Below, piece after piece: positions 9,562 to 49,871 of a stretch of 64,000 bases of DNA. The stretch comes from Actinomycetota bacterium (GTDB lineage: Bacteria; Actinomycetota; UBA4738). Location of the stretch: positions 8,614 through 72,613 of the forward strand of contig DATLZQ010000052.1 of NCBI GenBank assembly GCA_035573915.1. The letters are read 5' to 3'. The notes beneath the pieces are model-generated. The model saw nothing but the letters and a program-made list of their open reading frames with translations. It searched no databases and had not been told where the DNA came from. The translations under genes and the position numbers were made by a program. Numbering within the stretch: the stretch's first letter is position 1; each line of letters starts with the position of its first letter.

Positions 9562-9576
9562 CCCTCCTCCTCCCTC

Positions 9577-11935: not shown

Positions 11936-11951
11936 GGTCCTCACCTCCTGC

Positions 11952-11965: not shown

Positions 11966-12020
11966 GACCGGACCGAACTCCTGGCGGCCGCGTGGGTGGG
12001 AGCACCCCGGCCGCCCCGCC

Positions 12021-13103: not shown

Positions 13104-13114
13104 GGCGCTCCCTG

Positions 13115-13134
13115 CGTTTTCGAAAACGTTTTCG
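13115..13134. promoter_or_regulatory. Overlapping perfect palindromes CGTTTTCGAAAACG / CGAAAACGTTTTCG (LacI-type operator)
   Basis: Perfect 14-bp palindromes 12 nt upstream of the lacI-family start codon (13103). Fits the LacI-family operator consensus. Confidence 0.5.
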
Positions 13135-13212
13135 GCACTCTAGCCCGGAGCAGGCCCCAAGTCAAGCCCGACGTGGGCTGGGCGAGTTCGCGCCGGCCGG
13201 GGGTCCGCGGCC

Positions 13213-25853: not shown

Positions 25854-25985
25854 GGCCGGACACGCTACAGGACGGAAGGCTGGGCGGGCCGGGCTCCGTG
25901 CTCGCGTCGGGGCCATCGGGGAGAATGGCGGGGCGGGGGGCCGCCGCCGGAGGGAGGGACGCCGCCGAAGGGAGGCAGCCGCACC

Positions 25986-27368
25986 ATGCAGGTCCTGGAG
26001 AGCTTCCTCGACGCCGTGGGCCGGACTCCTCTGGTCCGCCTCCAGCGCATCACCCAGGGGGTCAGGCCCACCATCCTGGCCAAGCTCGAGATGCTCAACC
26101 CGGGCGGCAGCGTGAAGGATCGCATCGGCCTGCGCATGATCGAGGCCGCAGAGCGGGCCGGGCTGCTCCGGCCGGGGGGCACCATCGTCGAGCCCACCTC
26201 GGGCAACACCGGCCACGGGCTGGCCATCGCCGCGGCCATCAAGGGCTACCGGTGCATCTTCGTGATGCCGGACAAGATGAGCCAGGAGAAGGTGGCCCTC
26301 CTCCGGGCCTACGGGGCGGAGGTGGTGATCACCCCCACCGCGGTGCCCCCCGACTCCCCCGAGTCCTACTACCGGGTGGCGGACCGCCTGACCGAGGAGA
26401 TCCCCGGGGCCTTCCAGCCCAACCAGTACTTCAACCCGGAGAACCCCCGTGCCCACTACGAGACCACCGGCCCCGAGATCTGGGAGCAGACCGAGGGCAA
26501 GGTGGACGTCCTGGTGGCCGGGGTGGGGACCGGGGGGACGATCACCGGGGTGGGCCGCTACCTCAAGGAGCGGAACCCGGACGTCATGGTGGTGGGGGCG
26601 GACCCGGAGGGGTCGGTGTTCTCCGCCCCCGAGGAGCCGGCCCGCCCCTACCTCGTGGAGGGGATCGGGGAGGACTTCTGGCCCGAGACCTTCGACCCCT
26701 CCGTGGTAGACCGCTGGGTCCGGGTCTCGGACCGGGACTCGTTCCTCACGGCCCGGGCCATCACTCGCCAGGAGGGGATCCTCGTTGGGGGCTCCTCGGG
26801 GACGGCCATGTTCGCCGCCCTCACCGTGGCCCGGGAGCTGGACCGGGACGCCCTCATGGTCGTGATCTTCCCGGACACGGGGCGGAACTACCTCTCCAAG
26901 CTCTACTCGGACTCCTGGATGCTCCAGTACGGGTTCCTGGAGCGGCCCGAGGTAGTCCGGGTGGAGGAGGTCCTGGCCGCCCGGCGGGCCGACCTCCCCC
27001 CGCTCATCGTCGTCCAGGCCCACGAGAAGGTCCGCCAGGCCGTGGACCGCCTCCAGCAGTACGGCATCTCCCAGGCCCCCGTGGTCCGGGGGGACTCCCA
27101 CGAGGTGAGCGCGTTCGTGGGCTCCGTGCGGGAGGCGCAGCTCCTCGACCGCATCTTCCGAGACTCCGACGCCCTCCAGGCGGACGTGGCCGAGGTCATG
27201 GCCCCGCCGCTCCCCATGGTGGAGTTCGACGAGCCCATGGAGACGGCCTTCGCCGAGCTCCAGGTGGCCCCGGCCGTGGTGGTCACCAAGGAAGGGCAGG
27301 CCCTGGGCGTGCTCACCCGCGCCGACCTCCTCGAGTTCCTGGCCCACCGGGGACGGACCCGGCGCTGA
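25986..27368 (+). CDS. Cystathionine beta-synthase (with tandem CBS domains)
   Basis: PLP fold-type II with lysine motif (GSVKDRIG), TSGNTG, GTGGTITG, plus a C-terminal CBS-domain pair. RBS AAGGGAGG. Confidence 0.88.
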   Translation: MQVLESFLDAVGRTPLVRLQRITQGVRPTILAKLEMLNPGGSVKDRIGLRMIEAAERAGLLRPGGTIVEPTSGNTGHGLAIAAAIKGYRCIFVMPDKMSQEKVALLRAYGAEVVITPTAVPPDSPESYYRVADRLTEEIPGAFQPNQYFNPENPRAHYETTGPEIWEQTEGKVDVLVAGVGTGGTITGVGRYLKERNPDVMVVGADPEGSVFSAPEEPARPYLVEGIGEDFWPETFDPSVVDRWVRVSDRDSFLTARAITRQEGILVGGSSGTAMFAALTVARELDRDALMVVIFPDTGRNYLSKLYSDSWMLQYGFLERPEVVRVEEVLAARRADLPPLIVVQAHEKVRQAVDRLQQYGISQAPVVRGDSHEVSAFVGSVREAQLLDRIFRDSDALQADVAEVMAPPLPMVEFDEPMETAFAELQVAPAVVVTKEGQALGVLTRADLLEFLAHRGRTRR

Positions 27369-27373
27369 CCGCC

Positions 27374-28018
27374 GTGCGGGCCCTGGGCGTCGACGTGGGG
27401 GCGGGCCCCAAGTGGCTGGACGTGGTGGTCCTGGAGGGGGACGGCTGCCCGGTGGCCACGGAGCGGAGGGTCGAGCCCGGCGCGCTCGCGGGGCTCGTCG
27501 AGCGCTGGAGGCCGGACGTGGTGGCCATCGACTCCCCGCCCTCCTGGGCCCGGTCGGGGGGGTCCCGGCGGGCCGAGCGGGACCTGCTGCGCCTCGGGAT
27601 CCACGCCTTCCCCGTGCCGTCCGAGCCTCGGGCCGGGGGGCGCTTCTTCGAATGGATGGGGGTGGGGTTTCTCGCCTTCGAGGCGGCGGCCCGGGCGGGC
27701 TACCCCCGCTACCGGTGGGGGCCGGTGCGGGGGACCGCCGTCGAGGTCTTCCCCCACGCGTCCGCCGTGGCCCTGGCCGGGCAGCTCCCCCCGCGGGGCG
27801 CCCACCTCCGGCGGTGGCGGGCCGCCGTCCTCGAGCGGAGCGGGGTAGCCGTGGACGGCCTGGCCTCCGCGGACCAGGTGGACGCGGCCCTGGCGGCGCT
27901 CACGGGGATCCGAGCCCTGCAGGGGCGGTTCACGCCAGTGGGCGAGCCCGAGGAGGGCGTGGTGGTCCTGCCCGAAGCCCCGCTGGCGGGCCCCTTCCGC
28001 CGTCCGGCCGTGGGATAG
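27374..28018 (+). CDS. DUF429-domain protein (predicted RNase H-like fold)
   Basis: ALGVDVGAG...VAIDSP pattern of DUF429. GTG start chosen just after the CBS stop; the upstream part of listed ORF 25898..28018 is run-on. Confidence 0.55.
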   Translation: MRALGVDVGAGPKWLDVVVLEGDGCPVATERRVEPGALAGLVERWRPDVVAIDSPPSWARSGGSRRAERDLLRLGIHAFPVPSEPRAGGRFFEWMGVGFLAFEAAARAGYPRYRWGPVRGTAVEVFPHASAVALAGQLPPRGAHLRRWRAAVLERSGVAVDGLASADQVDAALAALTGIRALQGRFTPVGEPEEGVVVLPEAPLAGPFRRPAVG

Positions 28019-28094
28019 GGTTGAACCGTCCGTGGGCCAGGCCTGGCCGCCCGGCGGCCAGGCCGCCCCCAGGCTTGGAGCGAGGTGAGCGACC

Positions 28095-29222
28095 GTGCGG
28101 TTCGAGACCAAGGCCATCCACGTCGGCCAGGACCCCGACCCCGCCTACGGGGCGGTGAGCGTCCCCATCTACCAGACGTCCACCTACGCCCAGGAGGAGG
28201 TAGGGCGCCACAAGGGCTACGACTACGCCCGGACGGGCAACCCCACCCGCACGGCCCTGGAGGCCGTGGTGGCCGCCCTGGAGGGGGGCCACGGGGCCCT
28301 GGCCTTCGCCTCGGGCATGGCCGCCGAGGCCACCCTGTTCCACCTCCTCCGCCCCGGCCACCACGTCCTCATCGGGGACGACGTCTACGGAGGGACCTAC
28401 CGCCTGCTGGCCCGGGTCCTCCAGCAGTCGGCGGGCCTGCGGTTCGACACGGTGGACCTAACGGACCTCGAGGCCGTGGGCAAGGCCATCCGGGACGAGA
28501 CCCGGGTGGTCTGGGTGGAGACCCCCACCAACCCGCTCCTCAAGGTGGTGGACATCGCGGCCGTGGCCCGGCTGGCCCACGAGGCCGGGGCCTGGTGCGT
28601 GGTGGACAACACGTTCGCCTCGCCCTACCTCCAGCAGCCCATCGCCCTGGGGGCCGACCTGGTGGTCCACTCCAGCACGAAGTACCTGGGCGGCCACTCC
28701 GACGTGGTAGGCGGGGTGGTGGTGACCACGGACCCCGAGGTCCACGACCGGCTCAAGTTCCTCCAGAACGCCGTGGGGGCGGTCCCCGGGCCCGTGGACT
28801 GCTTTTTGGTCCTCCGAGGGATCAAGACCCTGGCCCTGCGCATGGAGGCCCACTGCCGGGGGGCCCGGCGGGTGGCCGAGTTCCTCTCCTCCCACCCCCG
28901 GGTCCGCCGGGTCCACTACCCCGGGCTCCCCTCCCACCCGGGCCACGAGGTGGCGGCCCGCCAGATGCGGGGGTTCGGGGGCATGGTGTCCTTCGAGACC
29001 GCCACGGAGGAGGAGGCCCTGGAGGTCTGCCGGCGGACCGAGCTCTTCTTCCTGGCCGAGTCGCTGGGCGGGGTGGAGTCCCTCATCGAGCACCCCGCCC
29101 GCATGACCCACGCCAGCGTGGCTGGCTCCCCCCTGGAGGTCCCCCCCACGCTGGTCCGGCTGTCCGTGGGGGTCGAGCACCCCGACGACCTCGTGGAGGA
29201 CCTGGCCCGGGCCTTGGGCTGA
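28095..29222 (+). CDS. Cystathionine gamma-lyase / gamma-synthase family PLP enzyme
   Basis: Cys/Met-metabolism PLP-dependent enzyme motifs (SSTKYLGGHSDVVGG with PLP-lysine, YARTGNPTR). Confidence 0.88.
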   Translation: MRFETKAIHVGQDPDPAYGAVSVPIYQTSTYAQEEVGRHKGYDYARTGNPTRTALEAVVAALEGGHGALAFASGMAAEATLFHLLRPGHHVLIGDDVYGGTYRLLARVLQQSAGLRFDTVDLTDLEAVGKAIRDETRVVWVETPTNPLLKVVDIAAVARLAHEAGAWCVVDNTFASPYLQQPIALGADLVVHSSTKYLGGHSDVVGGVVVTTDPEVHDRLKFLQNAVGAVPGPVDCFLVLRGIKTLALRMEAHCRGARRVAEFLSSHPRVRRVHYPGLPSHPGHEVAARQMRGFGGMVSFETATEEEALEVCRRTELFFLAESLGGVESLIEHPARMTHASVAGSPLEVPPTLVRLSVGVEHPDDLVEDLARALG

Positions 29223-29368
29223 CCCCGGGCCGCTCGGTCCCCGGGCGCCGGGACCGGGACGGCCCTGGACGGTCCGGTTTGACGCGGGGAGCGGTCCTGG
29301 GTTAGAAGCCTCCCGGCACCGTCAGTCGAGGGCCGGTGGTGGGGCCGGCCGGGAGGAGGGGGAGTCTC

Positions 29369-32300
29369 TTGAGACGGACGCGCGTCGCGCCGGCAGTCGT
29401 CCTCGCGCTCACCGCTTCCGTGCTCGTGGCGGCGGGGTCGGGCGGCCTGCCCGCCCGGGCCGGGTCGAACGGCGGCGACCCTCCCGCCGAGAAGCTGATC
29501 TTCTTCGCCTCGGACGGTATGCGCCCGGACATGGTCGAGCGGTTCGCGGGGGAGGGGGTCATGCCCACCTTCGCCGAGCTCATGGAGGAGGGCGTCCGGG
29601 GCGACAACGGCCTCCTGCAGTCCTTCCCCCCGAACACCGGCGTCGGCTGGTACACGCTGGCGACCGGGACCTACCCGGGCGAGTTCGGCTCCACGAACAA
29701 CACCTTCCACCGGACCGGGCAGAGCTTCGGGAGCCAGGCCCGCTTCTCCGACACCGGCATCCTCCAGGCAGACACCCTGATGCAGGCCCTGGAGCGGGCG
29801 GGGAAGACGGTCGTCTCCGTGGAGTGGGTCGGGGTGCGCAACCTGGTCCCGCCGCTGCAGGGGCCGGTGGTGGACTTCCGGACGTTCTTCTCCCGCCGCG
29901 GGGTGCTGGTCTTCCCCTCCGACCCCGACGAGGCCGCGGGGGCGGCCAGCTTCGGCCTCGAGTACCAGGTCGCCTCCTTCCAGGCGGCCTCGGGCTGGAC
30001 GAACACCCCCACCGGCGACGACGCGGTGGCCCCGCCCCAGGAGGCCGTGCTCACCATCCCCACCACGGCGAGTTCGGTCAACCCCACCCGGGTCTTCGAC
30101 CTCTACATCTTCGACGGCGCCGTGGACGGGTCCCCGGCCTACGACACCGTCCTCCTCGTCCCCCGGGCAGCGGGCAAGGACGCCAGCCAGGCCATGGCCA
30201 CCCTCCAGGAGGGCGACTGGGTGGACGTGAAGTTCACCGGGGCCAACGGGCTGACCGGTCCCCGGGCGGGCCAGACGGCGGGCTCGTGGATGAAGCTCAT
30301 CGAGCTGGCCCCGGACCTGAGCGCCTTCCGCCTGTACTTCACCTCGCTGGCCCGGGCCAACGCCACCTACCACGGCTGCACGTTCGCCCCGGACTGCGCC
30401 AGCCCCACCACCGGGTTCGAGGAGATCCTCAACCGGGAGTTCCCCACCTCCACTGCGGCCGACTTCGCCCCCATCGAGGCCGGCATCATCGACGACACCA
30501 CCCACGTGGAGCAGGGCCTCATGTGGGAGCGGGCCCACTACAAGTACCTGCAGTTCATCCTGGGGACCGGCCCCGTGGAGACGGTGGACGGGGGCACCAT
30601 CGAGGGCCTGGGGGTGGAGGCGGACGCCCTGTTCCTGGGCCACCCGGTGACCGACGAATTCCAGCACATGTACCTGGGGCTCGTGACGCCCGTCGAGCCG
30701 GGACCCGGGGGGACCAGCCGGCCCAACCCCTTCTTCGACGACCTGCAGGGCGACGGGGTCCGCGACGGCCGGGCGGAGGCCCGGGAGGGCTTCATCCGCG
30801 ACGCCTACGAGCAGGCCGACGCCACCCTGGCCCTGGGCCGGGACCTCATGGACGGGGTCATGGGGGATGGGGTGAACGCCGAGGCGGTGGTGTTCGCCAG
30901 CTCCGACCACGGCTTCGCCCCCCAGAACCAGGCCGTGAACGCCCGCTTCGTCCTGAGCCAGGCCACCGTGGACGCCGCGGGGACGCCGCTCTCGGTCCAC
31001 CCCAGTGGGGCTACGGCCACGAGCAACTGCGGGGCGGGCCCGAACGACCTGGCCAAGGCGTGCTGGGCCGGGGGCACCGCCCAGATCTACGTGAACCCCT
31101 CGCTGCCGCCGGGCGTGACCTACCAGGAGGTCCGCCAGGCCGTGGTGGAGGCCTTCGAGAACCTCACCGACCCGGGCGTGCCGGGGCGGGAGGTGGTGGA
31201 CCGGGTCCTGCTCAAGGAGGACCTCCGGGACGTGGACGGGAGCGACTCCCTCCACCCCAGCCGCAGCGGCGACGTGGTGGTCGTCACCCTGCCGCCCTAC
31301 CAGTTCGACGCGGCCACGCCCGGCCGGGCCATCGCCTTCTCCCGCTTCTTCGGCCAGCACGGCTACCGGCCCGACCTGGTCGACCTGGACCTCAACGTCA
31401 ACCTGCACGGGGCCTTCGTGGCCGCGGGCCCGGGCATCGCTGACCTCGACGCCCCCGTCCCGGGCGTGCGAGCCATCGACCTGGCCCCCACCGCGGCCTT
31501 CCTGCTCGGCGTCCCGGGGCCCCACAACGCCCGGGGCCGCATCCTCTACGAGATCCTGGCGGGGGGCTCGAGCCTACGGGAGGTGACCGTCCTCGACATC
31601 AGCGACTACCACGGCCAGCTGATCCCCCTGACCGAGCTCCCGGACGGGAGCGGCTCCTGCCCCTCGAGCTTCCCGGCCGTCACCTGCCGCATCGGCGGCG
31701 CGGCCTTCCTCAAGCCCTGGTTCGACGTCTACCGGGCCGAGGCCCAGGACGGCCAGCACCTCACGGTGGCCGGGGGCGACTCCGTGGGGGCCACCCCGCC
31801 CATCTCGAGCTTCTTCGGGGACACTCCGACCATCGAGCTAATGAACGCCATGGGCTTCGACCTCGACGCCCTGGGCAACCACAACTTCGACCGGGGGCAG
31901 GCTTACCTGCGCAACACGCTGATCCCGCTGGCGCGGTTCAAGTACGTCTCCGCCAACCTGGTGGACAGCGCCACCGGCGACACCCCACCCGAGTGGTCGA
32001 AGTCTCGCGAGTTCACCTTCGGGAGCGGCGCGCGGAAGTTCACCGTGGCCGTCGTGGGGTTCTCCAACCCCGACATCCCCGAGCTCACCTTCCCCGGGGC
32101 CCTCGGGCCGTTCGTGGTCACGGACCCCGTGGAGGCCGTGAACAAGCGGGCGGCTCAGCTCCGAAGGCAACGCAAGGTGGCGGCCGTGGTGGCCCTGGGG
32201 CACATGGGCGCCACCTCCGGGACCCTGACCGAGCCCGCCGGGCCGGGCATCGACCTCGCCGACGACGTCCAGGGCGTGGACGCGGTCATCCTCGACCACA

Positions 32301-33232
32301 CCAACTTCCAGGTCCTCGATGTCCGACCCAACGGGGTCCTGGTGACGGAGAACCTGAGCAAGGGGGTCCGGTTCACCCGGATCCGCCTGGTCATCGACCC
32401 GGCCAGCCGCACGCTCGTCTACAAGACGGCTGACTTCCACAAGCCCTGGAACATCGGGGTGAGCCCCGACCCGGACATCCAGGATCGGATCGACGAGCTC
32501 AACGCCCAGCTCGCCCCCGTCCTCGGCACGGTGATCGGCCAGTCCACGGTGGAGGTCCCGCGGTCCGACGCCTGCGGCAACACCGCGGGCCGGCTGTGCG
32601 AGTCCAAGATCGGCGACGTGGTCACCGATGCCATGCGCACCACCTACGGGACGGACTTCGCCATCACGAACTCGGGCGGCATCCGGGACTCCCTGACCTG
32701 CCCACCGTCCGGGGGCGGACCCGGCTTCTGCCCGAGCTTCACCCCGCCGCCCTGGCTCATCACGCGGGGGCAGGTGCTCGCCATGCTGCCGTTCGGGAAC
32801 GTCAACGTGACGCTCTCGGTGAACGGGGCCGAGCTCAAGGCGTTCCTGGAGAACGGGGTCTCCCGGGTGCCGACGGCGGACGGACGGTTCCCGCAGGTGT
32901 CAGGGCTGTGCTTCACCTACGACGTCCAGGCCCCCGCGGGAAGCCGGGTGCTGAGCGCCCGCCGCCAGGCGGCGGACGGGAGCTGCACGGGCCCCACGGT
33001 CGACCTCACGGCCGCCTCCACCTACACGCTCACCGTCAACGACTTCATGGCCAACGGGGGCGACGGCTACCCGGTCGTGATCGGCCGGGCCACCACGAGG
33101 AACCTGATGGACGAGGACGTGGCGAACTACGTCGCCGCCAACTCGCCCATCAGCCCGTCCATCCAGGGACGGATCGTGTGTACGGACAGCAACCCGTCGA
33201 CGGCCCCCGCCTGCCCGACGGTGCTGCCGTAG
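29369..33232 (+). CDS. Secreted fusion protein: N-terminal nucleotide pyrophosphatase/phosphodiesterase (alkaline-phosphatase superfamily) domain plus C-terminal bifunctional metallophosphatase/5'-nucleotidase
   Basis: TTG at 29369 follows GGGAGGAGGGGGAG and gives a signal peptide [24 protein letters not shown]; the in-frame ATG at 29336 is an alternative. N-half has [32 protein letters not shown] and FASSDHGF (NPP motifs). C-half has [17 protein letters not shown] and ITNSGGIR (UshA-like metallophosphoesterase plus 5'-nucleotidase C domain). Confidence 0.75.
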
Positions 33233-33436: not shown

Positions 33437-33871
33437 TCACACCCCCAGTCGTCGGTGCGTGGTCATGATGCAGGCGCCCATCACCACCTCCAGGCCCCCC
33501 TCCTCCGCGATCCGGCGGGCCTCGTCGTTCACGACGCCCGTCTGGAGCCAGAGGACCTTGGCCCCGACCTGCACGGCCTGGCGGGCCACCTCGGGGGTGG
33601 CCTCGGGGCGGCGGAAGACGTTCACCGCGTCCACCGGCTCGGGGACCTCCAGCAGGGAAGGGTAGGCCCGCTCCCCCAGGACCTCGGTCTCGTTCGGGTT
33701 GACCGGGATGACCCGGTACCCCTTGGCCTGGAGGTAGCTCGCCACCTGGTACGAGTGCCGCCAGGGCTTGGAGGACAGCCCGACCACGGCGATGGTCCGG
33801 GCCGACCCCAGGATCGAGCGCAGCTCCTGGTCCGTGGGGAGGTACGGGCCGAGGGTCTCCTCGGTGGCCAC
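33437..33871 (-). CDS. CoA-binding domain protein
   Basis: TIAVVGLSSKPWRHSYQV motif. GTG at 33871 with AGGAGG 6 nt upstream, 1 nt after the NUDIX stop. Confidence 0.75.
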   Translation of the reverse strand: MATEETLGPYLPTDQELRSILGSARTIAVVGLSSKPWRHSYQVASYLQAKGYRVIPVNPNETEVLGERAYPSLLEVPEPVDAVNVFRRPEATPEVARQAVQVGAKVLWLQTGVVNDEARRIAEEGGLEVVMGACIMTTHRRLGV

Positions 33872-33872
33872 C

Positions 33873-34472
33873 TCAGTCCTCCTGCCCACGGGGACCGGGC
33901 AGGAGGCGGGCGGCCTGGGCCACCCCGAGGAACGCCCACAGGATCCGGGCCGTGGCCCCCCAGATCACCTTGCCTCCCATGTCGAACACGTAGCTCATGA
34001 ACCTCCGTCCCTCCCGCTCCAATTCCCGCTCCTCCCCCGCCGCAGCCAGCGCCGGGAGGGAGAACTCCAGGACCTCCGCGATCTCCGAGGCGTTGGGAGC
34101 GAACGACGGCTCCTCCCGGAGGAGCCCGACGAAGGGCACGATGAGGACCCCGCTCACCACGGTGTGGACGGGGGGCAGGGCGCCCAGGACCTCCACGGCG
34201 CCGGGCGAGAGGCCCAGCTCCTCCCGGGCCTCCCGGAGGGCCGCCGCCAGGAGCTCCTCGCCGGGGTCCAGGAGGCCCCCCGGGAAGGAGATCTCCCCCG
34301 CGTGGCGGCTCAGCCGGTCGCTCCGCCGGGTGAAGACCAGGCGGGGTTCGGGGTCCGCCACCACCACCGGCACCAGGACCGCGGCCAGGCTCGTCTCGGC
34401 GGGCACCGAGGGTCGGGGGTCCGGCTCGAGGTGAGGGAGGAGCGCCCAGCGGAAGATTTCGATTCGGTCCAC
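33873..34472 (-). CDS. NUDIX hydrolase (CoA pyrophosphatase-like)
   Basis: Nudix box (GEISFPGGLLDPGEELLAAALREAREELGL) and upstream LLPHL.. motif of the CoAse subfamily. Confidence 0.75.
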   Translation of the reverse strand: MDRIEIFRWALLPHLEPDPRPSVPAETSLAAVLVPVVVADPEPRLVFTRRSDRLSRHAGEISFPGGLLDPGEELLAAALREAREELGLSPGAVEVLGALPPVHTVVSGVLIVPFVGLLREEPSFAPNASEIAEVLEFSLPALAAAGEERELEREGRRFMSYVFDMGGKVIWGATARILWAFLGVAQAARLLPGPRGQED

Positions 34473-35467: not shown

Positions 35468-36142
35468 TCAGCGTAGCTGGCGGACCTGCCCCAGCCCCTT
35501 CACCTCAAGCAGCCGGAGCTCGAGGTCCACCCAGGGCGAGCGGACCTCGACCCGGGCCAGGAGCTGGGTCCACAGCCGCTCCGGGACCTCGGGCTCTCGC
35601 CCGTCCTCGAAGACGAAGCCCCAGGCCGGCCCGGCCAGGAAGTCGGCCCTCACGCTGACCGGGGTGTCCGGGTCGGCCGTCAGCAGCTCGTATCCAGGGT
35701 GCTCCTCGGCGAACCCGGACAGCCACCGCCAGAACCGGGCGGGGGCGGTGGCCAGGACCGCCCCCTGCTCCACGGCCTTCCTAGTCTGGGCCAGGGCCAT
35801 CTTGTGGAGGTCCGCCATGACGGCGTTGGCGAAGCCCAGGTGGTCCTCGCCCCTCGGGTGCCACTGGAGCTCGATGGCCAGCTGCGGGGTCCTGGTCCGA
35901 GCGCTCACCACCACGTCGCTGGGCCTGGCCAGGACTCCCGACGGCCCCAGGGGCTGGTCCACCGAGACCAGCTCGGACTGGCCGAACTGGAAGGCCCGCC
36001 GGAGGTAGGCCCGGAGGTCGGAGTCGAAGCTGAACCGCGTGGCCGGGGCCGACCGGGAGGCCAGCCCCAGGTGGTTGACGAGCGCCTGGAGCTCCCCGGC
36101 CGCGGCCAGGACCGCCCCCTGGATGCCCTCCGCCTCCAGCAT
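35468..36142 (-). CDS. Hypothetical protein
   Basis: ATG at 36142 (MLEAEGIQG...). No family recognised. The upstream part of the listed ORF is G/R-rich run-on. Confidence 0.4.
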
Positions 36143-36288
36143 CCCTCTCCCCGCCCGACGACTCCGTCCCACGGGCCCGCCCGGGTCCCACGGGCCCGTC
36201 CCGTGCCGGCCCGGGTCCCCGCGCGCCACAACCCGCGGGAGCCTAGCAAGCCCCGCCGGCGGATGACAGGGCGCCCCGCCGACCCTCC

Positions 36289-36294
36289 TATACT
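36289..36294 (+). promoter_or_regulatory. Candidate -10 element TATACT for a near-leaderless transcript of the FrhB-like gene
   Basis: TATACT ends 10 nt before the ATG at 36305. No SD sequence is visible, consistent with leaderless initiation. Confidence 0.3.
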
Positions 36295-36304
36295 GTCCGC
36301 CGCG

Positions 36305-37465
36305 ATGGCCGCACCCGAGAAGACCCAGTGGCGGGACCTCTACACCGAAGTGGTGGCCACCGGCCTGTGCACGGGGTGCTCGGCGTGCGTGGTGGTCTGC
36401 CCCTTCCACGTCCTGGGCTACGAGGACCACAAGCCCGTCCAGCTAGAGGGGCTGGGCCCGGACCGCTGCACCCACGGGGACAAGGGCTGCGACATCTGCA
36501 CCCGGGCCTGCCCTCGGTTCCGGGCGTGGGAGCCCGAGATCGACCGCCTCCTGTTCGGACGCACCCGGCGGCCCGAGGAGGTCATCGGGGTGCACCGGGA
36601 CATCGTCCTGGCCCGGGCCACGGACCCCCGGGTGCTGGCCCAGGGCCAGGACGGCGGGGTGGTCTCCGCCCTGCTCATCTGGGGGCTGGAGACGGGCCAG
36701 ATCGACGGGGCCTGCACCTCCCGCCTCTCCGACGAGCGGCCCTGGGACGCCGAGCCCACCGTGGTCACGGACGTGGAGGGGGTCCTGGCCACGGCCGGCT
36801 CCCGCTATACGTACTCGGCCAACCCCCTGGCCCTGGTCAAGGCGGCGGAAATGGGCCTCTCCAAGGTGGCCCTGGTGGGGATGTCCTGCCAGGCCAGCGT
36901 GACCGGGGCCCTGGAGGCCCGGCGGGTCAACAAGTGGCGGCGGCGCATCGCCTGGACCCTCGGGCTGCTCTGTTCGAAGACCTTCACGTACGAGGGGCTC
37001 AACGTGGAGATCGCCCAGAAGGAGCTGGGGCTGCGCCTGGAGGACGTGGTCCGGGTCAACGTCAAGGGCAAGCTCCTCTTCTACACGGCCGACGGGCAGG
37101 AGCACACCTACTCGCTCAAGAAGGCCCACCGATACACGCGGACCGGGTGCCTCAGGTGCCCCGACTTCGCCGCCGAGCACGCCGACCTCTCCTTCGGCGG
37201 CCTGGGGCAGACCGAGGGCTGGACCCTCACCGTGATCCGCACCGAGCTCGGGGAGCGGATCTTCCGGGACGCGGTCCGGGACGGCGTGGTCGAGTTCCGG
37301 CCGGGAAGCGAGGACCCCGAGGCCATCGCCCTCATGGAGCGGCTGGCCGCCCGGCAGCGACAGCGGTGGCCGGGGGACGAGCTGCCCGAGGAGTGGTCCT
37401 TCCCCGGCCTGGTCCCCGAGGCGGCGGGTTCGCCCTCGGCTCCCGCCCCCGCCGACCCGTCCTGA
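36305..37465 (+). CDS. Coenzyme F420 hydrogenase/dehydrogenase beta-subunit (FrhB/FpoF)-family protein with N-terminal 2x[4Fe-4S] ferredoxin domain
   Basis: [12 protein letters not shown] and CDICTRACP cluster motifs followed by an FrhB_FdhB N and C domain pattern. Confidence 0.65.
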
Positions 37466-37933: not shown

Positions 37934-38917
37934 CTAGCGCTCCACCGCCGGGTTGGGGGCGGCGGCCATGAGGGTGCCCAGCACGGAGGAGAACCGGTCC
38001 AGGGTGGCCACCGGGTAGCAGAAGACCACGTCGGCCCCGGCCCGGCGGAACTGCTCGAACCGCTCCATGGCCTCCCGCCGCCCCCCGGTCACGGCCACGG
38101 CCCGGACCAGCGTCTCGGGGACGTCCTGGGGGCGTCCCTCGGCGAAGGCCTTGGCCGCCAGCCGGGCCTCCTCGCCCAGGCCCATGGCCTCGAACTGGCG
38201 GAGGTACTGGGGGAGGGCCGCGTACCGCCCGGTCATCTCCCGCAGGCTCTCCATGGCCACCCGCTCGGCCACCCCGAGGCAGCAGCGGACGTAGACGGCC
38301 AGGGTGAGGCGGGAGGGGTCCCGTCCGGCCTGCCGCGCCGCCCGGTCCAGGACCCGGCGGGCCCGGGCCGCCCGCTCCGGGGTGCACCAGTTGAGGATCG
38401 CCCCGTCCGCCACCCGGGCGGCCACCTCGAGCATCCGGTCCCCCAGCGCGCCCAGCCAGATGGGGGGCGGCGGCGGCAGGGGCTCGAGGTCCAGCCGGAA
38501 CCGGGGGACCCCGAACCGCTCGGCCCGGACCGTCTCCCCCGCCAGGGCCGCGCGCACCGTGGCCACGTACGCCCGGACGGTCTCCAGGGTCTCCCGCCCG
38601 GGGGGCAGGGACCCCGAGCCCAGGCCCAGGACCAGGCGTCCGCCGGAGAGCTCCTGGAGGGTGGCGGCGGCCATGGCCACCGCGGCCGGGCTCCGGGACC
38701 GGAGGTCGACCACCCCGGTCCCCAGCCGGACCCGGGAGGTGACCACGGCGAACCCGGCCAGGGTCGCGAAGGCCTCCCGGGCGTCGATCTCGGGCACGAA
38801 GACGGCTTCGTAGCCCGTGAGGTCGACGGTCTCCACGACCTCCCGCAGCTCGGGCCAGGGCAGCGGGTCGCGCACCACCGCCCCGACCCGGAGGGCCTCC
38901 CGCCCCGGCTCGGTCAC
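37934..38917 (-). CDS. LLM-class (luciferase-like) F420-dependent oxidoreductase
   Basis: Luciferase-like monooxygenase TIM barrel. GTG at 38917 with GAGGAGG RBS. Confidence 0.65.
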   Translation of the reverse strand: MTEPGREALRVGAVVRDPLPWPELREVVETVDLTGYEAVFVPEIDAREAFATLAGFAVVTSRVRLGTGVVDLRSRSPAAVAMAAATLQELSGGRLVLGLGSGSLPPGRETLETVRAYVATVRAALAGETVRAERFGVPRFRLDLEPLPPPPPIWLGALGDRMLEVAARVADGAILNWCTPERAARARRVLDRAARQAGRDPSRLTLAVYVRCCLGVAERVAMESLREMTGRYAALPQYLRQFEAMGLGEEARLAAKAFAEGRPQDVPETLVRAVAVTGGRREAMERFEQFRRAGADVVFCYPVATLDRFSSVLGTLMAAAPNPAVER

Positions 38918-39187
38918 CGGCGGCCTCCTCGAGCGGTCCGCGGGCCCGGCGTCCCCTCGGCGAACGCAGCCCGACCCGTCCCCATGTCGCCATGCTCCCA
39001 CACCGACGCCCGCCCCAGGCGGGCGAGCCCGGTTCCGGAAACCTCGGCCAGGAACCTGCGGGCGGAGCAGGCCCCGGCCGGTCGAGCGGGACCGGGACGA
39101 CGGGAAGGAGGATGATGGGAAGGGGTCCAGGACGGCCCTCGCACGCGTCCCTCCAGGCTAGGGTCGGAGGCCGGGGCCAGAAGGGCG

Positions 39188-44219: not shown

Positions 44220-45401
44220 TCAGGCCCTCACGACGGACTGGAACAGCTGCTCGAACTGCTGCTCCTCCTCCGGGTCGAGGGGCCTGAAGATGTGGGCCCG
44301 GGCCAGGGTCTCGGGGTCGGGGACGATCAGGGGGTTCTCGGCCAGGGCGGGGTCGATCTTCGTCAACTCCTCCTTCACCCCCTCCACCGGGCTTACGAAC
44401 TGCACGAAGGCGGCGATCTGGGCGGCGATCTTTGGGTCGTAGACGAAGTTCATGAACGTCTCCGCGGTGAACTTGTGCTCCGCCGTGATGGGGATGAGCA
44501 TGTTGTCCGACCAAAACATGAACCCTTCCTCGGGGAAGAGCCACTCGAGGTCGGGGTTGTCCTGCTTGAGCTGGACCACGTCCCCCGACCAGGCGAACGA
44601 CACCCAGGCGTCTCCGCGCACGAGGTCGGGACCGTAGTCGTTCCCCGTGAACCGGCGGATCTGGCCGGTCTCCACCGCCTCCTTGATCCGCTCCACCGCG
44701 GCCTCGGCATCCTCCAGGGTCGCTTCCTCCGGGGCCACACCCATCCCCAGCAGCACCAGCCCGAGGGTGTCCCGCATCTCCGTCAGCATGGTGACGTGGC
44801 CCTTGAACGCGGGGTCGAAAATGTCGTTCACGCTGGTGAGCTTGCGTCCGGTAAGCTTGGGGTTGTAGCCGATCCCGGTGAAGCCGGACTGCCAGGGCAG
44901 GCTGAACCGCCGGCCCGGGTCGAACGACGGGTTCTCCAGGGTGTCCACGAGGTTCGTCCAGTTCGGGATGTTGTCCTTGTCGAGCTCCGCCAGCCAGCCC
45001 AGCTTGATCAGCCGGCTGGCCATCCAGTCCGTGAGCACGATGATGTCCCGCTCGATGCTCTGCCTCCGGGACAGGGGCTCCCTGATCTTGGCGAAGTACT
45101 CGACGTTGTCGTTGATCTCCTCGATGTAGTTCACGTTCACGCCGTACTGCTTCCTGAAGTCCCGCAGTGTCTTCTTGTCGATGTAGAACGGCCAGTTGGC
45201 GAAGTTCAGGATGTCCGAGAGCGTGGGGGAAGGAGAAGGGGAGGCTGGGGTGGGCGAGGGGCCGGTTGGAGTGGGCGTCGGCCCCTGCGGTTGGATTCCC
45301 CGGGCGCACGCGACGAGCAGGGAGGCCCCGGTACCCACGAGGAACTGGCGACGGGTGAGCCTCCGGGCGGGAACCCGAGACCACCGACGGTCATCACCCA
45401 T
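44220..45401 (-). CDS. potD: Spermidine/putrescine ABC transporter substrate-binding protein (Tat/lipoprotein signal)
   Basis: RRQFLVGTGASLLVACA signal and PotD/PotF-like fold. Confidence 0.8.
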   Translation of the reverse strand: MGDDRRWSRVPARRLTRRQFLVGTGASLLVACARGIQPQGPTPTPTGPSPTPASPSPSPTLSDILNFANWPFYIDKKTLRDFRKQYGVNVNYIEEINDNVEYFAKIREPLSRRQSIERDIIVLTDWMASRLIKLGWLAELDKDNIPNWTNLVDTLENPSFDPGRRFSLPWQSGFTGIGYNPKLTGRKLTSVNDIFDPAFKGHVTMLTEMRDTLGLVLLGMGVAPEEATLEDAEAAVERIKEAVETGQIRRFTGNDYGPDLVRGDAWVSFAWSGDVVQLKQDNPDLEWLFPEEGFMFWSDNMLIPITAEHKFTAETFMNFVYDPKIAAQIAAFVQFVSPVEGVKEELTKIDPALAENPLIVPDPETLARAHIFRPLDPEEEQQFEQLFQSVVRA

Positions 45402-45490
45402 ACCTCCTCAACCCCCTCTCTGAAGCCTGGCTCTGCCCCCCCTGAGCAGCATGCTAGCGCGCCGATGGAGGGCCCTGGGACGCAGCGGGG

Positions 45491-46642
45491 TCATGGCTCC
45501 TTGGGCGACGGCAGGGCGTACCCCGCCCCCCTCCCCCAGACCGCCCAGGCCTGGTCCCCCGGACGAAGCGCAGCCGGCGCCTCGTGGGCGGGCACGTGGG
45601 CCACCACCTCCGTGCCGTCCACGGCCCGGAGCGCGTAGCGCACGACGGGGCCCTGGAAGACGACGTCCACGACCGTCCCCCGGACCTTGCCTTCTCCCCC
45701 CGTCTCGAGTTCCAGCGGCAGGACTCGAAGGCGCTCGGGGCGGAGCATGACCACCACCTCCTGGCCCGGCCGGAAGGAGCCACCGTCCGCCTCCGCCCAG
45801 GTCCCACCCCCCGCCGCCAGCCGCAGCTCCACCCCCTCGTCCGCTACCCGCTCCACCCGGGCGGGGAGGAGGTTGGCCAGGCCGATGAAGCTGGCCACGA
45901 ACAGCGAGCGGGGACGGTTGTAGATCTCGGCGGGCGCGCCGACCTGCTCGACCCGACCCTCGTTCATGACGGCGATCCGGTCCGACATGGTGAGGGCTTC
46001 CTCCTGGTCGTGGGTCACGTACACGAAGGTGATCCCCACCTCCCGCTGGATGCGCTTGAGCTCCAGCTGCATGGCCTGGCGGAGCTTGAGGTCCAAGGCC
46101 CCCAGAGGCTCGTCGAGCAGGAGGGCGCTGGGGTAGTTCACCAGGGCCCGGGCCAGGGCCACCCGCTGCTGTTGGCCCCCGGAGAGCTCCCGGGGTCGAC
46201 GCCGCGCCAGGTGGCCCAGGCGTACCACGTCGAGGATCTCGGTGACCTTCCGTCGGACCTCGGACGCGGGGAGCTTCCGGCTTCGTGGGCCGAAGGCCAC
46301 GTTGTCGAAGACGTCCATGTGGGGGAACAGCGCGTAGTGCTGGAAGACCATGTTGACGTTGCGGCGGTAGGGAGGGACGGACGATACGTCCTGCCCTTCG
46401 AGGAGGATGCGACCGCTGGTGGGCGTCTCGAACCCCGCGATCATCCGAAGCGTGGTGGTCTTGCCGCACCCGGATGGGCCGAGGAGGGAGAAGAACTCCC
46501 CGCGCCGGATGGTCAGGGTCACCTCGTCCACGGCCACCACCGAGCCGAACCGCTTGGTGACCCGCTCCAGCCGAATGACCGGGTCGGAGACCTCGGGAGT
46601 CTCCGGCCGCTCGCGCAGCGAGGACCGCGGCCACTCAGCCAC
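45491..46642 (-). CDS. potA: Spermidine/putrescine ABC transporter ATP-binding protein
   Basis: Walker [25 protein letters not shown], Walker B LLLDEP, and C-terminal TOBE/MOP-like domain. Confidence 0.88.
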
Positions 46643-46714
46643 CGGTTCGCACTCCCTCCAGCCGGGTTCTCCCCGAAGAACGGCTCCCGGCGCCGCCGTC
46701 GTTTCTCCCTTACC

Positions 46715-48367
46715 TCATGCTAGGCGCGTCCCCGGTGGCCGGACAATCGGCCACCGGGAGCGGATCCCCAGGAGCCGGCCCCGCCCTACGTCCCGCCAGA
46801 CCACCCGGGCACAGTTCCAACCGGGCACGCCCATGACGCCGCCTCCGGGGTGGGTCCCCGCCCCGCACAGGTAGAGTCCCCGGACGGGGGTCCGGTAGCT
46901 CCCCCACCCCGGCACCGGACGAAAGACGAACAGCTGGTCCAGGGTCATCTCGCCGTGGAAGATGTTCCCGCCGACCAGACCGAACCGCCGCTCCAGGTCG
47001 GGAGGTGCCAGGACCTCGGCATGGAGGACCGCCCCGGCCACGTCGGGCGCGTACTCCTCGAGGGTCGAGAGGACCCTCTCCAGGTAGGTCTCCCGGGCCG
47101 TGTCCCAGGAGCCCTCTGCCAGGCGGTAGGGACCGAACTGGGTGAAGAGCAGGGCGATGTGCCTCCCGGAAGGGGCCAGCTCGGGCTCGAACACGGTGGG
47201 GAAGACGGCCTCGATGTAGGGCCGCTCCGACATGCGACCGTGCTTCGCGTCGTCCCAGGCCCGCTCCAGGTACTCGACCGAGGGGGAGATGGCCAGGATC
47301 CCGGTGTGCGGAGCCCCCGGGGCCGGGCCCGACCACGACCGGAACCTGGGGAGTTCGGCCAGGGCGAGGTTGACCTTGACCGAGCCCGAGCGGCTCCGGA
47401 ACCTCCGGAGGTCCCGCACTGTCTCCGGAGGCAGGTGCTCCTGGCCCACCAGGTGCAGGAGCGTGGTCACCGGGTGCGCATTCGAGATCACCGCACGGGC
47501 CCGGACCCTGGTCCCATCCTCCAGCTCCACCCCGGTAGCTCGTCCGTGGCGGACGGTGATGCGACCGACGCCGGCCCCGGTGCGCACCTCGGCCCCCGAC
47601 GCCCGGGCCGCCTCGGCCAGGGCCCACCCCAGAGCCCCCATCCCTCCGTGCACCCACCCCCAGGCCCCCTCGTGGCCCTCCACCTCACCCATCCAGTGGT
47701 GGAGCAGGACGTAGGCTGTGCCCGGGGTCATGGGCCCGGCCCAGGCCCCGATGATGCCCTGGGTGGCCAGGGCCCCTTTCACCCGGGGGTCCTGGAACCA
47801 CTCGTCGAGGAAGTCGGCCGCGCTGGCCGTGAGGAGCCGAGCCACGGCCACCAGATCCGCCCGGCTCCAGTGGCTGAGCCTCCGAGCCACACCTGCCCAC
47901 CGAGGGAGGTCTGCCAGCCGGAACCCCGGCGGGATCACGAAGAGGAGCTCTCGGACCAGATGCGCCAGCCGCGAGAGGTAGGCGTCGAACCGGGGATAGG
48001 CGTCTGCGTCGGCCCGGGAGAACCGGGCGATCTCCTGGGCCGTCCGAGCGGGGTCGCCCCACAGCGTGAGGGCCGACCCGTCAGGGTAGGGGACGTAGTA
48101 GTCGGGCTCCAGGACCGTCACACGGTACCCGAACCGACGGAGGCCGAGCGCCGACACGAGCCCCGGCGGCATGAGGCTCACGACGTACGAGGCCGTCGAC
48201 ACCCGGTATCCGGGCCAGGGCTCCTCGGTGGCGGCGGCGCCGCCAGGGACCGTCCGTCGCTCCAGCACGAGGACGTCGAGCCCACGACGGGCCAGGGAGG
48301 CGGCACAGACCAGGCCGTTGTGGCCGGCCCCCACGACCACCGCGTCCCGAGCCCGGGCCAGGCCCAT
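46715..48367 (-). CDS. FAD/NAD(P)-dependent oxidoreductase (phytoene-desaturase / amine-oxidase family)
   Basis: N-terminal dinucleotide-binding motif VVVGAGHNGL..LVLERR, CrtI-like overall pattern. Confidence 0.75.
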   Translation of the reverse strand: MGLARARDAVVVGAGHNGLVCAASLARRGLDVLVLERRTVPGGAAATEEPWPGYRVSTASYVVSLMPPGLVSALGLRRFGYRVTVLEPDYYVPYPDGSALTLWGDPARTAQEIARFSRADADAYPRFDAYLSRLAHLVRELLFVIPPGFRLADLPRWAGVARRLSHWSRADLVAVARLLTASAADFLDEWFQDPRVKGALATQGIIGAWAGPMTPGTAYVLLHHWMGEVEGHEGAWGWVHGGMGALGWALAEAARASGAEVRTGAGVGRITVRHGRATGVELEDGTRVRARAVISNAHPVTTLLHLVGQEHLPPETVRDLRRFRSRSGSVKVNLALAELPRFRSWSGPAPGAPHTGILAISPSVEYLERAWDDAKHGRMSERPYIEAVFPTVFEPELAPSGRHIALLFTQFGPYRLAEGSWDTARETYLERVLSTLEEYAPDVAGAVLHAEVLAPPDLERRFGLVGGNIFHGEMTLDQLFVFRPVPGWGSYRTPVRGLYLCGAGTHPGGGVMGVPGWNCARVVWRDVGRGRLLGIRSRWPIVRPPGTRLA

Positions 48368-48407
48368 CCCTCGTCCCCGGAGACCCGGTCCCCCAGCGGT
48401 CCGGGGC

Positions 48408-49835
48408 CTACAGGGGTACGTGGGAGAGGACCAGCAGCCTCGGCTCAGTCATGGCCTCCATGGCGTAGCGGAGCCCCTCCCGGCCGTACCCGGAGTCCTT
48501 GGAGCCGCCGTACGGCATCTGGTCCGCCCGGAACGCCGAGACGTCGTTCACGATCACCCCGCCCACCTGGAGCTCACGGTGCGCCAGCAGGGCCCGCTCG
48601 ATGGAGCTCGTGAACACCCCGGCCTGCAGGCCGTAGGGCGAGGCGTTGACCTCGGCCAGGGCCTCCTCGAAGGTCTGGTAGGGCTGGACGGTGATGACCG
48701 GGCCGAAGACCTCCTCGCAGCGGACCTTCATCTCCGGGGTGGTCTTGGTGAGGATCGTCGGGTAGTAGAAGGGGTCCTCCCGCCGGCCCCCGGTCACGAC
48801 CTCGGCCCCCTGCTCCACGGCCTCCCGGACCCAGGCGTCCACCCGGTCCAGGGCCCCCCGGTCGATGAGAGGTCCCACGTCCACGGTGGGGTCCATGGGG
48901 TCCCCCACCTTGAGGCTCTCCACCTGCTTGACCAGCCGGGCCATGAAGGCGTCGTACACCTCGGACTGGACCAGGACCCGCTGCACGGCGATGCAGGACT
49001 GCCCGGCCTGGTAGTAGCCCCCCACCGCCACCCGCTGGGCGGCGTGGTCGAGGTCCGCGTCGGAGTGCACGATGACCCCGGCGTTCCCCCCGAGCTCCAG
49101 GGTCACGTGCTTGCGGGGGTCGAGGCCCTTGAGCTTCCAGCCCACGGCGCTGGAGCCGGTGAACGAGATCTTCTTGAACCGGGGGTCGGTGACCAGCCGC
49201 TCCGCCCGTTGCGCCGAGATGGGCAGGACCGAGAGCATCCCCCTGGGGAGCTCGGTCTCGGCGAACAGCTCGGCCAGGGCCAGGGCCCCCAGGGGCGTGG
49301 CCCCGGCCGGCTTGACCACGATGGGGCAGCCCACGGCCAGGGCGGGGGCCACCTTGTGGGCCACGAGGTTCACCGGGAAGTTGAACGGGGTGATCCCCAG
49401 GACCGGCCCCAGGGGGAACCGGCGGAGGATGCCAGCCCGGCTCCCCAGGGCGGGGTCGGTGTCGAGGCGCATGAACTCCCCGCCCATCCGCCGGCACTCC
49501 TCCGCGGCCCAGCGGAACGTGGACACGGCCCTGGTCACCTCAACGGTCGACCACTTGAGGGGCTTCCCCCCTTCCCGGGTGACCAGCTCGGCCAGCTCGG
49601 AGAGCCGCTCCCCGATGCGGCGGGAGATGTGCATGAGGGCTTCCGCCCGGACGTGGGTGGGGAGGGTCCGGGACTCCCGGAAGGTCTCCGCGGCCCGGGT
49701 CACGGCCTCCTCCACGTCCCGGTCCGTGGGCACCGCGACCTCGGCCACCACGCTTCCGTCGTAGGGGCTGTGCACGGCAAGGGTCCCCTCGCCGGTCCGC
49801 CACTCGCCACCGACGTAGAAGGGCTTCACCGTCAT
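48408..49835 (-). CDS. NAD(P)-dependent aldehyde dehydrogenase
   Basis: ATG at 49835 (MTVKPFYVGGEW). Catalytic ELGGNAG and Cys in QAGQSCIA. Confidence 0.85.
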   Translation of the reverse strand: MTVKPFYVGGEWRTGEGTLAVHSPYDGSVVAEVAVPTDRDVEEAVTRAAETFRESRTLPTHVRAEALMHISRRIGERLSELAELVTREGGKPLKWSTVEVTRAVSTFRWAAEECRRMGGEFMRLDTDPALGSRAGILRRFPLGPVLGITPFNFPVNLVAHKVAPALAVGCPIVVKPAGATPLGALALAELFAETELPRGMLSVLPISAQRAERLVTDPRFKKISFTGSSAVGWKLKGLDPRKHVTLELGGNAGVIVHSDADLDHAAQRVAVGGYYQAGQSCIAVQRVLVQSEVYDAFMARLVKQVESLKVGDPMDPTVDVGPLIDRGALDRVDAWVREAVEQGAEVVTGGRREDPFYYPTILTKTTPEMKVRCEEVFGPVITVQPYQTFEEALAEVNASPYGLQAGVFTSSIERALLAHRELQVGGVIVNDVSAFRADQMPYGGSKDSGYGREGLRYAMEAMTEPRLLVLSHVPL

Positions 49836-49871
49836 GGTCACCTCACCCCTTCCCGGCCCCCGTGGGGCCAC

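Follow-up and report, generated by a model that had tools for sequence, protein, structure and literature searches.

The 64,000-nucleotide stretch of actinomycetotal DNA that we analysed (hereafter the window) encodes a single polypeptide in which an alkaline phosphatase (AlkP)-superfamily domain of the nucleotide pyrophosphatase/phosphodiesterase (NPP) type is joined to a complete UshA/CD73-type 5'-nucleotidase, as Pfam, NCBIfam and PDB searches all indicated, in agreement with a preliminary description of this DNA. The catalytic residues of the protein are intact and strictly conserved, it carries an export signal, and the fusion is conserved across many species. Its substrates, the order of its two reactions and its physiological role are what we infer here, and on balance we lean towards a Sec-exported, soluble two-site enzyme that would convert nucleotides into 5'-NMP with its NPP half and 5'-NMP into nucleoside and phosphate with its nucleotidase half, for scavenging.

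The fusion gene and its distribution

The fusion protein is encoded by an uninterrupted, single open reading frame on the plus strand (29336-33232; 1298 codons counted from the GTG at 29336). Within it, the TTG at 29369 is the better-supported start, because a Shine-Dalgarno-like sequence read by eye, GGGAGGAGGGGG (29351..29362, plus strand), is located 6 nt upstream and because the N-terminus obtained from this codon, MRRTR..., is the one present in the ATG-initiated Lentzea orthologues. The proposed coding sequence occupies 29369..33232 (plus strand) and specifies 1287 aa plus the stop codon, while the alternative upstream GTG would give 1298 aa; the 1288 aa originally reported were therefore near but inexact. 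An exact-sequence look-up of the window protein returned no record.

The preliminary description had also raised the concern that the two halves could have been brought together by an assembly chimera, with a break near 31300-31500. We found no such break: the GC content is flat along the gene (0.69-0.74) and does not change at 31300-31500, GC and third-position GC (0.97 for the gene) are uniform over the junction, and the reading frame is continuous. Moreover, at least 400 species genomes, among them those of Kribbella and Lentzea isolates, carry the same architecture of about 1240 aa, and independent assemblies yielded at least 120 full-length homologues or metagenomic clusters (59-91% identity, 96-100% coverage). 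The chance that this is a chimera, or a gene call fusing two separate genes, is thus practically negligible. The fusion family is abundant, with thousands of metagenomic sequences, and very well conserved, with a mean identity of about 65-69% over two phyla, Actinomycetota and Chloroflexota. The names given to its members in public databases are generic and domain-based only, and in the literature we found no paper describing a PF01663 plus PF02872 fusion and no experimental data. The family is, then, already widespread, though uncharacterised.

Domain layout and conservation of the two active sites

A Pfam search of the fusion protein identified PF01663, in two stretches (100.8 bits; cut-off 23), and PF02872 (118.8 bits; cut-off 23.6), and each of the 120 listed homologues has a precomputed PF01663 match. 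The third family that had been expected in the same protein, PF00149, was not reported at E ≤ 0.01; it does match homologue P0132, and the region from about aa 700 to 1280 is covered by the NCBIfam 5'-nucleotidase/CpdB models and by the PDB profile search. Conservation was then counted in 78 orthologues of the protein. All 12 key residues of the NPP half and 13 of the 14 in the nucleotidase half are invariant in the 78, and every motif quoted in the preliminary description was present and corresponds to catalytic residues with this degree of invariance. Selection thus acts on the two sites alike, and the strict retention of both argues against redundancy.

The N-terminal half has an AlkP-type alpha/beta fold, to which the NPPs are closest. 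The first part of its core (aa 42-157; 29492..29839, plus strand, as are all the features below) is the best PF01663 stretch and contains, according to a phmmer alignment to autotaxin, the metal ligand D49 (29513-29515), the nucleophile T90 (29636-29638) and N111 (29699-29701), which is aligned to the adjacent-helix Asn of autotaxin. A beta-rich insert of about 190 aa (aa 158-348; 29840..30412) separates it from the second part of the core (aa 349-735; 30413..31573), which also holds the conserved pair C554/C565. In this second part, D429/H433 (30653-30667), D513/H514 (30905-30910) and H664 (31358-31360) are the probable remaining metal ligands, judging by the order of their motifs (DxxxH, DH and H) and by their invariance. 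The Thr nucleophile, the Asn and six Asp/His ligands of a bimetallo site, as implied by the original NPP assignment, were accordingly all located, and each is invariant in 78/78.

What the preliminary description overlooked is the size of this half. Because of the beta-rich insert it reaches about 700 aa, nearly twice the normal length: the Xanthomonas axonopodis NPP (2gsn/7mw8), human ENPP4 and ENPP1/3 have about 380-400 aa. Compared with these NPPs, the N-terminal half adds the insert after the 'W-x-G' strand, together with other extensions, and has a 5'-nucleotidase joined to it; the activity assigned to this half is a predicted one. The insert is confidently modelled and has neither a Pfam match nor a solved structural relative; for a superfamily as well studied as that of alkaline phosphatase, this is a modest structural novelty.

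The residue following the nucleophile also separates the protein from the characterised enzymes. At this position the X. axonopodis NPP, ENPP1 and autotaxin carry a Phe, which either stacks on the base or lines the pocket, whereas the fusion carries a Gly (G91), invariant in 78/78, so that the canonical nucleotide slot is not evidently conserved. A second aromatic, F170 or F173, may substitute for the missing one. In the PDB profile and phmmer searches the similarity to solved NPPs was limited to about 80 residues. PafA and PhoK, which are phosphomonoesterases, and ENPP6 and ENPP7, which are diesterases of non-nucleotide substrates, also fall within PF01663 and its fold, and they score nearly as well. 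The two-step logic of ENPP plus CD73 put forward in the preliminary description is a plausible and reasonable proposal, with the qualification that the substrate of the N-terminal half is not readable from its sequence.

A less likely alternative is a dual phosphatase, in which the N-terminal half would be a broad phosphomonoesterase like PafA or PhoK (5tj3/5too, 5xwi), and the protein would mineralise a broad range of organophosphates without an NPP step, the 5'-nucleotidase half supplying or complementing monoester substrates. The 5'-nucleotidases UshA and NadN also split UDP-sugars and NAD. The PafA model did not match the fusion protein significantly (15.8 bits versus 650).

The C-terminal half begins with a metallophosphatase domain (aa 736-1054; 31574..32530), recognised by NCBIfam and PDB profile matches, in which the motifs DxH, GD, GNH(D/E/N), GH and H are all present; all 78 orthologues retain D746, H748, D804, N837, H838, H945 and H977. 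In the PDB profile search, residues 2-221 of CD73 aligned to profile positions 704-938 (E about 3e-41). The substrate-binding domain that follows (aa 1055-1236; 32531..33076) corresponds to the PF02872 match and contains the GGDGY motif; in its alignment to the Thermus thermophilus enzyme 2z1a, R1106 (NSGGIR), F1142 (LPFGN) and F1226 (NDF) coincide with the same motifs and are invariant. The phosphate-binding Arg and the two base-stacking Phe of the 5'-nucleotidase C domain are therefore retained, which argues that this half is built for nucleotides. The alignment with 2z1a runs the full length of this half (E 1.3e-33), which shares with UshA, CD73 and the T. thermophilus 5'-nucleotidase (1ush, 4h1s, 2z1a) both domains, all the dimetal ligands, the catalytic His, and the C-domain phosphate-binding Arg and base-stacking Phe. 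It differs from them in being the C-terminal part of a fusion and in having extra Cys-bracketed loops (C1069/C1077, C1111/C1121, C1181/C1206 and C1271/C1282). With 115.6 bits against the UshA equivalog NF007109 (cut-off 600), it falls far under the NCBIfam equivalog cut-offs, and so is a member of the family and not a UshA orthologue.

The NPP-like half is also found as a complete stand-alone protein. In a Rosetta-stone test these stand-alone genes had no adjacent 5'-nucleotidase gene, indicating that the function of this half does not require the partner. A rather unlikely reading is that the fusion contains two uncoupled scavenging modules, the first acting on a non-nucleotide phosphodiester (a wall polymer such as teichoic acid, a glycerophosphodiester or the head group of a phospholipid, in the manner of ENPP6 and ENPP7) and the 5'-nucleotidase acting separately on free nucleotides, so that the fusion would merely secure the co-secretion of both. 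Parsimony speaks against it, since in every case the partner in the fusion is an enzyme specific for nucleotides, and in most members a very short linker joins the halves (one variant carries a PKD linker between them); in addition, teichoic-acid or lipid genes are not linked to the fusion gene.

Export signal and conserved cysteines

The N-terminus reads as a Sec-type signal peptide without a lipobox Cys (aa 1-31, followed by GS; 29369..29461), with the probable cleavage site placed by the AxA rule, and signal peptides or comparable N-termini are present in 78/78 orthologues. The preliminary description had called it an RR-type, that is Tat, signal. The RR itself exists, but just 36/78 orthologues have it and none (0/78) has the canonical [ST]RRx-hydrophobic-hydrophobic motif, and the TAT_signal models PF10518 and TIGR01409 did not match the protein in the Pfam and NCBIfam searches. 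Judged by its residues, the signal is Sec-like and not Tat, and Tat export is unsupported. Five conserved Cys pairs, four of them invariant in 78/78 and the fifth in 76/78, also argue for folding outside the cell.

One of these pairs lies in the C-terminal tail (aa 1237-1287; 33077..33229) and is formed by C1271 (33179-33181) and C1282 (33212-33214), conserved in 77/78 and likely to make a disulfide. The tail contains no LPXTG motif and no transmembrane anchor. Thus, the cysteines to which attention had been drawn are there, but as a conserved pair and not as a special feature or anchor.

Regulation and gene neighbourhood

Directly after the stop codon of the upstream cystathionine-lyase-like gene we found an imperfect inverted repeat (29224..29268; 21-nt arms, 71% complementary), possibly the terminator of that gene, which would make the fusion gene a separate transcription unit. 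A consensus scan detected no sigma-70-type promoter or terminator tied to the fusion gene; the single terminator-like site, on the minus strand and inside the coding sequence, was no more than expected by chance. A 5'-UTR hairpin in which CCUCCCGGC pairs with the Shine-Dalgarno sequence (29309-29356) was discarded, being no stabler than shuffled sequences (z +0.61), and no Rfam family was found in 29150-29450. The Pho box that had been suggested upstream was not detected: with a Streptomyces-type consensus, which may not be that of this lineage, the best PHO-box scores upstream of 75 orthologues averaged 15.09/22, compared with 15.17 in coding controls, and no pho or pst gene is nearby.

In the window, the fusion gene is flanked by transsulfuration genes upstream and CoA-binding/NUDIX genes downstream, and ABC systems elsewhere in the window are of the sugar and polyamine type, not for nucleosides or phosphate. 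The fusion belongs to no conserved operon, and genes for nucleoside transporters or nucleases and pho/pst genes were not found with it, either in the window or in 80 other loci. The most recurrent neighbour, seen in 18 of the 80 loci, reflects lineage synteny around uvrA/uvrB, and the neighbourhoods in Lentzea and Kribbella are unrelated.

We also considered that the protein could serve extracellular nucleotide signalling or adenosine production, as ENPP1 with CD73 or Staphylococcus aureus AdsA do, instead of nutrient acquisition. Its chemistry would not differ from that of scavenging, and CD73 is among the closest solved relatives of the C-terminal half. Nevertheless, the carriers are free-living Actinomycetota and Chloroflexota of soil, sediment and groundwater with no host association, and no signalling genes are linked, which makes such a role very improbable.

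Discussion

In the mechanism that we favour, the fusion protein would be exported by Sec and act outside the cell as a soluble enzyme, stabilised by disulfides and bearing two independent hydrolytic sites on one chain. Its N-terminal ~700 aa, an NPP-type domain with a bimetallo site, a Thr nucleophile and the extra ~190-aa beta-rich insert, would release 5'-NMP from extracellular nucleotides by hydrolysing their phosphodiester or pyrophosphate bonds; NTP, NAD, nucleotide sugars, dinucleotides and the 3' ends of oligonucleotides are the candidate substrates. Its C-terminal ~550 aa, the UshA/CD73-type 5'-nucleotidase, would then split 5'-NMP into nucleoside and phosphate. By the established enzymology of the NPP and 5'-nucleotidase families, the product of an NPP, 5'-NMP, is just what the fused domain uses as substrate. 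As a net result, phosphate and importable nucleosides would be scavenged from nucleic-acid-derived organic phosphorus.

The Bacillus protein YfkN, a CpdB-UshA fusion, is a multidomain secreted nucleotide phosphoesterase, and fusions of this kind have been noted (PMC10454023). Like YfkN, the protein proposed here would combine a mononucleotide-yielding diesterase module and a 5'-nucleotidase module in one exported polypeptide. In YfkN, however, both modules are paralogues of the metallophosphatase/5'-nucleotidase family, whereas here the first belongs to the AlkP/NPP superfamily, and the protein lacks a wall anchor. In Vibrio cholerae, nucleases together with UshA/CpdB take phosphate from extracellular DNA (PMC4714964). 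This system and mammalian ENPP1/ENPP3 with CD73 share the proposed chemistry, from nucleotide or oligonucleotide to 5'-NMP and then to nucleoside plus phosphate; both divide the steps among separate proteins, while here, in the proposed role, they would be covalently linked.

A more speculative proposal, which we regard as doubtful, is that the insert is a new domain for substrate recognition, or a cap, through which the NPP core can act on polymeric or unusual phosphodiesters, such as the ends of extracellular DNA or RNA. The fusion would in that case be a self-contained 'polymer-to-nucleoside-plus-phosphate' exo-enzyme, and a major unrecognised route of organic-phosphorus mineralisation, horizontally shared by soil Actinomycetota and Chloroflexota.

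Extracellular nucleic acids and nucleotides constitute a large organic-phosphorus pool in soils and sediments, and the enzymes tapping the extracellular nucleotide pool in the Gram-positive-type soil phyla are poorly known. If the coupled diesterase-plus-nucleotidase reaction is true, the fusion would represent a compact, one-protein path from nucleotides to nucleosides and phosphate, and its gene would be a defined marker for phosphorus-cycling surveys.

A single reading frame encodes both domains

The window has a G+C content of about 72%, and an uninterrupted ORF was read from its sequence at 29336-33232 (+). The first in-frame start, a GTG at 29336 (+), would give 1298 aa. A TTG at 29369 (+), located 6 nt downstream of GGGAGGAGGGGG (29351-29362), would give 1287 aa with the N-terminus MRRTRVAP..., in agreement with the MRRTR... 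of the ATG-initiated Lentzea orthologues. We consider TTG 29369 the better candidate, and residues are numbered according to the 1287-aa protein.

Pfam matched this protein to PF01663 (Phosphodiest; 100.8 bits, in two stretches) and PF02872 (5_nucleotid_C; 118.8 bits), confirming the preliminary description of one polypeptide with NPP and 5'-nucleotidase domains. That description had also raised a possible break between the halves, and none was found: GC along the gene is 0.69-0.74 without discontinuity at the domain junction, and third-position GC (0.97) is at the level of the adjacent genes. When 5.8 billion protein clusters were searched with the fusion protein, 2070 matches were obtained, the best 120 of which were all about 1230-1260 aa long, with 59-91% identity, 96-100% query coverage and both Pfam domains. 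A GTDB scan, using one genome per species, revealed at least 400 loci with the fusion. An assembly chimera is ruled out by these full-length homologues and species loci, and that the fusion is an artefact is scarcely credible.

Domain identity, active sites and export

PDB sequences were searched with a profile built from 30 homologues. The C-half (aa 736-1287) matched the T. thermophilus 5'-nucleotidase 2z1a (E 1e-42), CD73 (about 3e-41) and UshA (about 1e-26), and by itself it aligned end to end with 2z1a. NCBIfam 5'-nucleotidase, CpdB and NadN models also matched aa ~750-1280, every score being far under the equivalog cut-off. The N-half (aa ~32-735) matched NPPs and PafA at about 1e-6 only, across its first ~80 residues. 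In the fold comparison its model ranked NPPs over monoesterases, with sulfatases lower; of its 706 modelled residues, only about 357 could be aligned to the NPPs.

In a phmmer alignment with autotaxin, D49, T90 and N111 correspond to the metal Asp, the nucleophile Thr and the conserved Asn; judging from motif order, D429xxxH433, D513-H514 and H664 would complete the usual NPP ligand set. The C-half carries the metallophosphatase set (D746/H748, D804, N837/H838, H945, H977) and the C-domain residues R1106, F1142, F1226 and GGDGY. All these residues are invariant in 78/78 orthologues drawn from species genomes, the sole exception being position 979 (D, N or H), which indicates that both catalytic centres are under strict selection.

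At the N-terminus of every one of the 78 orthologues a hydrophobic core comes after a basic n-region, so the export signal previously proposed stands. Its RR (Tat) character does not: RR occurs in only 36, the canonical Tat pattern in none, and the Pfam and NCBIfam TAT_signal models did not match the window protein. Five Cys pairs (554/565, 1069/1077, 1111/1121, 1181/1206 and 1271/1282) are kept in 76-78 of the 78 orthologues, as would fit a disulfide-bonded extracellular protein; the Cys-containing tail, earlier singled out, is simply the last of them. The missing Tat pattern and TAT_signal match, together with the conserved cysteines, point to export by Sec rather than Tat. The window protein was also inspected for an LPXTG motif, a lipobox and a C-terminal membrane anchor, and none is present.

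A proposed two-step reaction

The best-supported proposal is a Sec-secreted two-site enzyme, in which the N-half would release a 5'-NMP by breaking a phosphodiester or pyrophosphate bond, and the C-half would hydrolyse this to phosphate and nucleoside. This two-step logic, already put forward from the sequence, gains plausibility because NPPs outrank monoesterases in the fold comparison, the fused partner has a nucleotide-specific architecture, and both sites are strictly retained, contrary to redundancy. Its certainty is another matter. The nucleotide-specific NPPs known so far have Phe directly after the nucleophile, whereas the fusion family has an invariant Gly after T90.

The N-half can also exist alone. 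Searching 1.84 billion cluster representatives with it gave 293 clusters at E<1e-30, among them complete stand-alone proteins of ~670-715 aa with PF01663 only, and a variant in which a PKD domain separates the two halves. The stand-alone genes terminate within their contigs, and in the loci inspected none adjoins a 5'-nucleotidase gene. One adjoins GH18 and PIG-L genes; another, on a metagenomic contig (L081, 361-2487), encodes the 708-aa homologue P0124, with Ser instead of Thr at the nucleophile position, and is immediately adjacent to a type II secretion operon (gspD, C, M, L-like, K). The missing aromatic slot residue and this independence keep two rivals alive: that the N-half is a PafA-like monoesterase, which we consider unlikely, or that it is a diesterase acting on substrates other than nucleotides and not coupled to the nucleotidase, which is somewhat less likely still. 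A signalling role for the two-site enzyme is very improbable.

Gene neighbourhood and regulation

The fusion gene is preceded on its own strand by genes for a cystathionine beta-synthase-like PALP+CBS protein (25902-27365, +), an uncharacterised DUF429 protein (27350-28015, +), which overlaps it and sits between two PLP enzyme genes, and a Cys_Met_Meta_PP enzyme (28095-29219, +); the cluster (25902-29219, +) resembles reverse transsulfuration. An imperfect hairpin follows the stop codon of the last of these, so the fusion gene is probably a separate transcription unit. Downstream and convergent are overlapping CoA_binding_2 (33437-33889, -) and NUDIX (33873-34472, -) genes, which may form a CoA-related pair.

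No neighbourhood was conserved across 80 fusion loci, and the Lentzea and Kribbella isolates likewise showed none. In ~18 Gaiellaceae-like loci a small calcineurin-like metallophosphoesterase gene (e.g. L004 4186-5004, -) follows the fusion gene, between uvrB and uvrA and with a bPH_2 protein and an AI-2E transporter, an arrangement that probably reflects lineage synteny rather than functional linkage.

The suggested Pho box did not emerge: upstream of 75 orthologues, a Streptomyces-type consensus, which may not suit this lineage, scored no higher than within coding sequence. Neither a consensus promoter, a gene-linked terminator, an Rfam element nor significant 5'-UTR structure was found at the fusion gene. 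Phosphate regulation is thus neither supported nor excluded by the upstream scans. The Lentzea orthologues L063, L065, L069 and L080 share a block ~100 nt upstream of their start codons, …GTTAGGGTCGTTCGGCCGTAGGAAG…GGACGGACCTA…GGGTCGGGGCAGGCACCTGGAGG, which may function as a promoter or 5'-UTR element or simply reflect within-genus conservation.

Elsewhere in the window, the ABC transporters fall into sugar and polyamine types: a LacI-family regulator with a sugar-type system (one solute-binding protein, two permeases; 8665-13139, -), and a polyamine/GABA-type catabolic cluster (44223-52816) with a solute-binding protein, a TOBE-domain ABC ATPase, a flavin amine oxidase, two aldehyde dehydrogenases and a divergent class-III aminotransferase gene. 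A 320-aa ORF without Pfam match (35468-36430, -) adjoins an FrhB/FdhB-like F420-type beta-subunit gene with 4Fe-4S motifs (36302-37462, +), and a luciferase-like monooxygenase lies at 37934-39157. A + strand ORF ending at 35461 has a putative IscA/HesB-like C-terminus (…GGCSGF…CACGESF), spotted by eye.

A widespread family

Carriers include Actinomycetota (Gaiellaceae, Kribbella, Lentzea, Ilumatobacteraceae, Euzebyales, Thermoleophilia) and Chloroflexota (Anaerolineae, Caldilineaceae, Thermoflexus, Roseiflexaceae, Limnocylindria); the nearest genome match among those listed is an Actinomycetota soil MAG (73% identity). One MAG, CAWHOA01, has two copies (loci L042 and L051), and lone matches in one 'Omnitrophota' and one 'Bacteroidota' MAG may result from faulty binning. 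Compared in pairs, the 78 orthologues average 65% identity in the N-half, 69% in the C-half and 57% in the insert, a ~190-aa beta-rich segment (aa 158-348). Values of ~65-69% are unusually high for a 1250-aa secreted protein and, with the interleaving of both phyla in a crude NJ tree without support values, suggest horizontal transfer between Actinomycetota and Chloroflexota.

Homologues bear generic database names ('5'-nucleotidase C-terminal domain-containing protein', JGI COG names). Our literature search found no paper on a PF01663 plus PF02872-type NPP/5'-nucleotidase fusion; the only fusions mentioned in a survey of ushA-like genes are of the UshA-CpdB kind. The fusion joins two well-known kinds of enzyme in an undescribed arrangement, together with an orphan insert, and represents a widespread, uncharacterised family.
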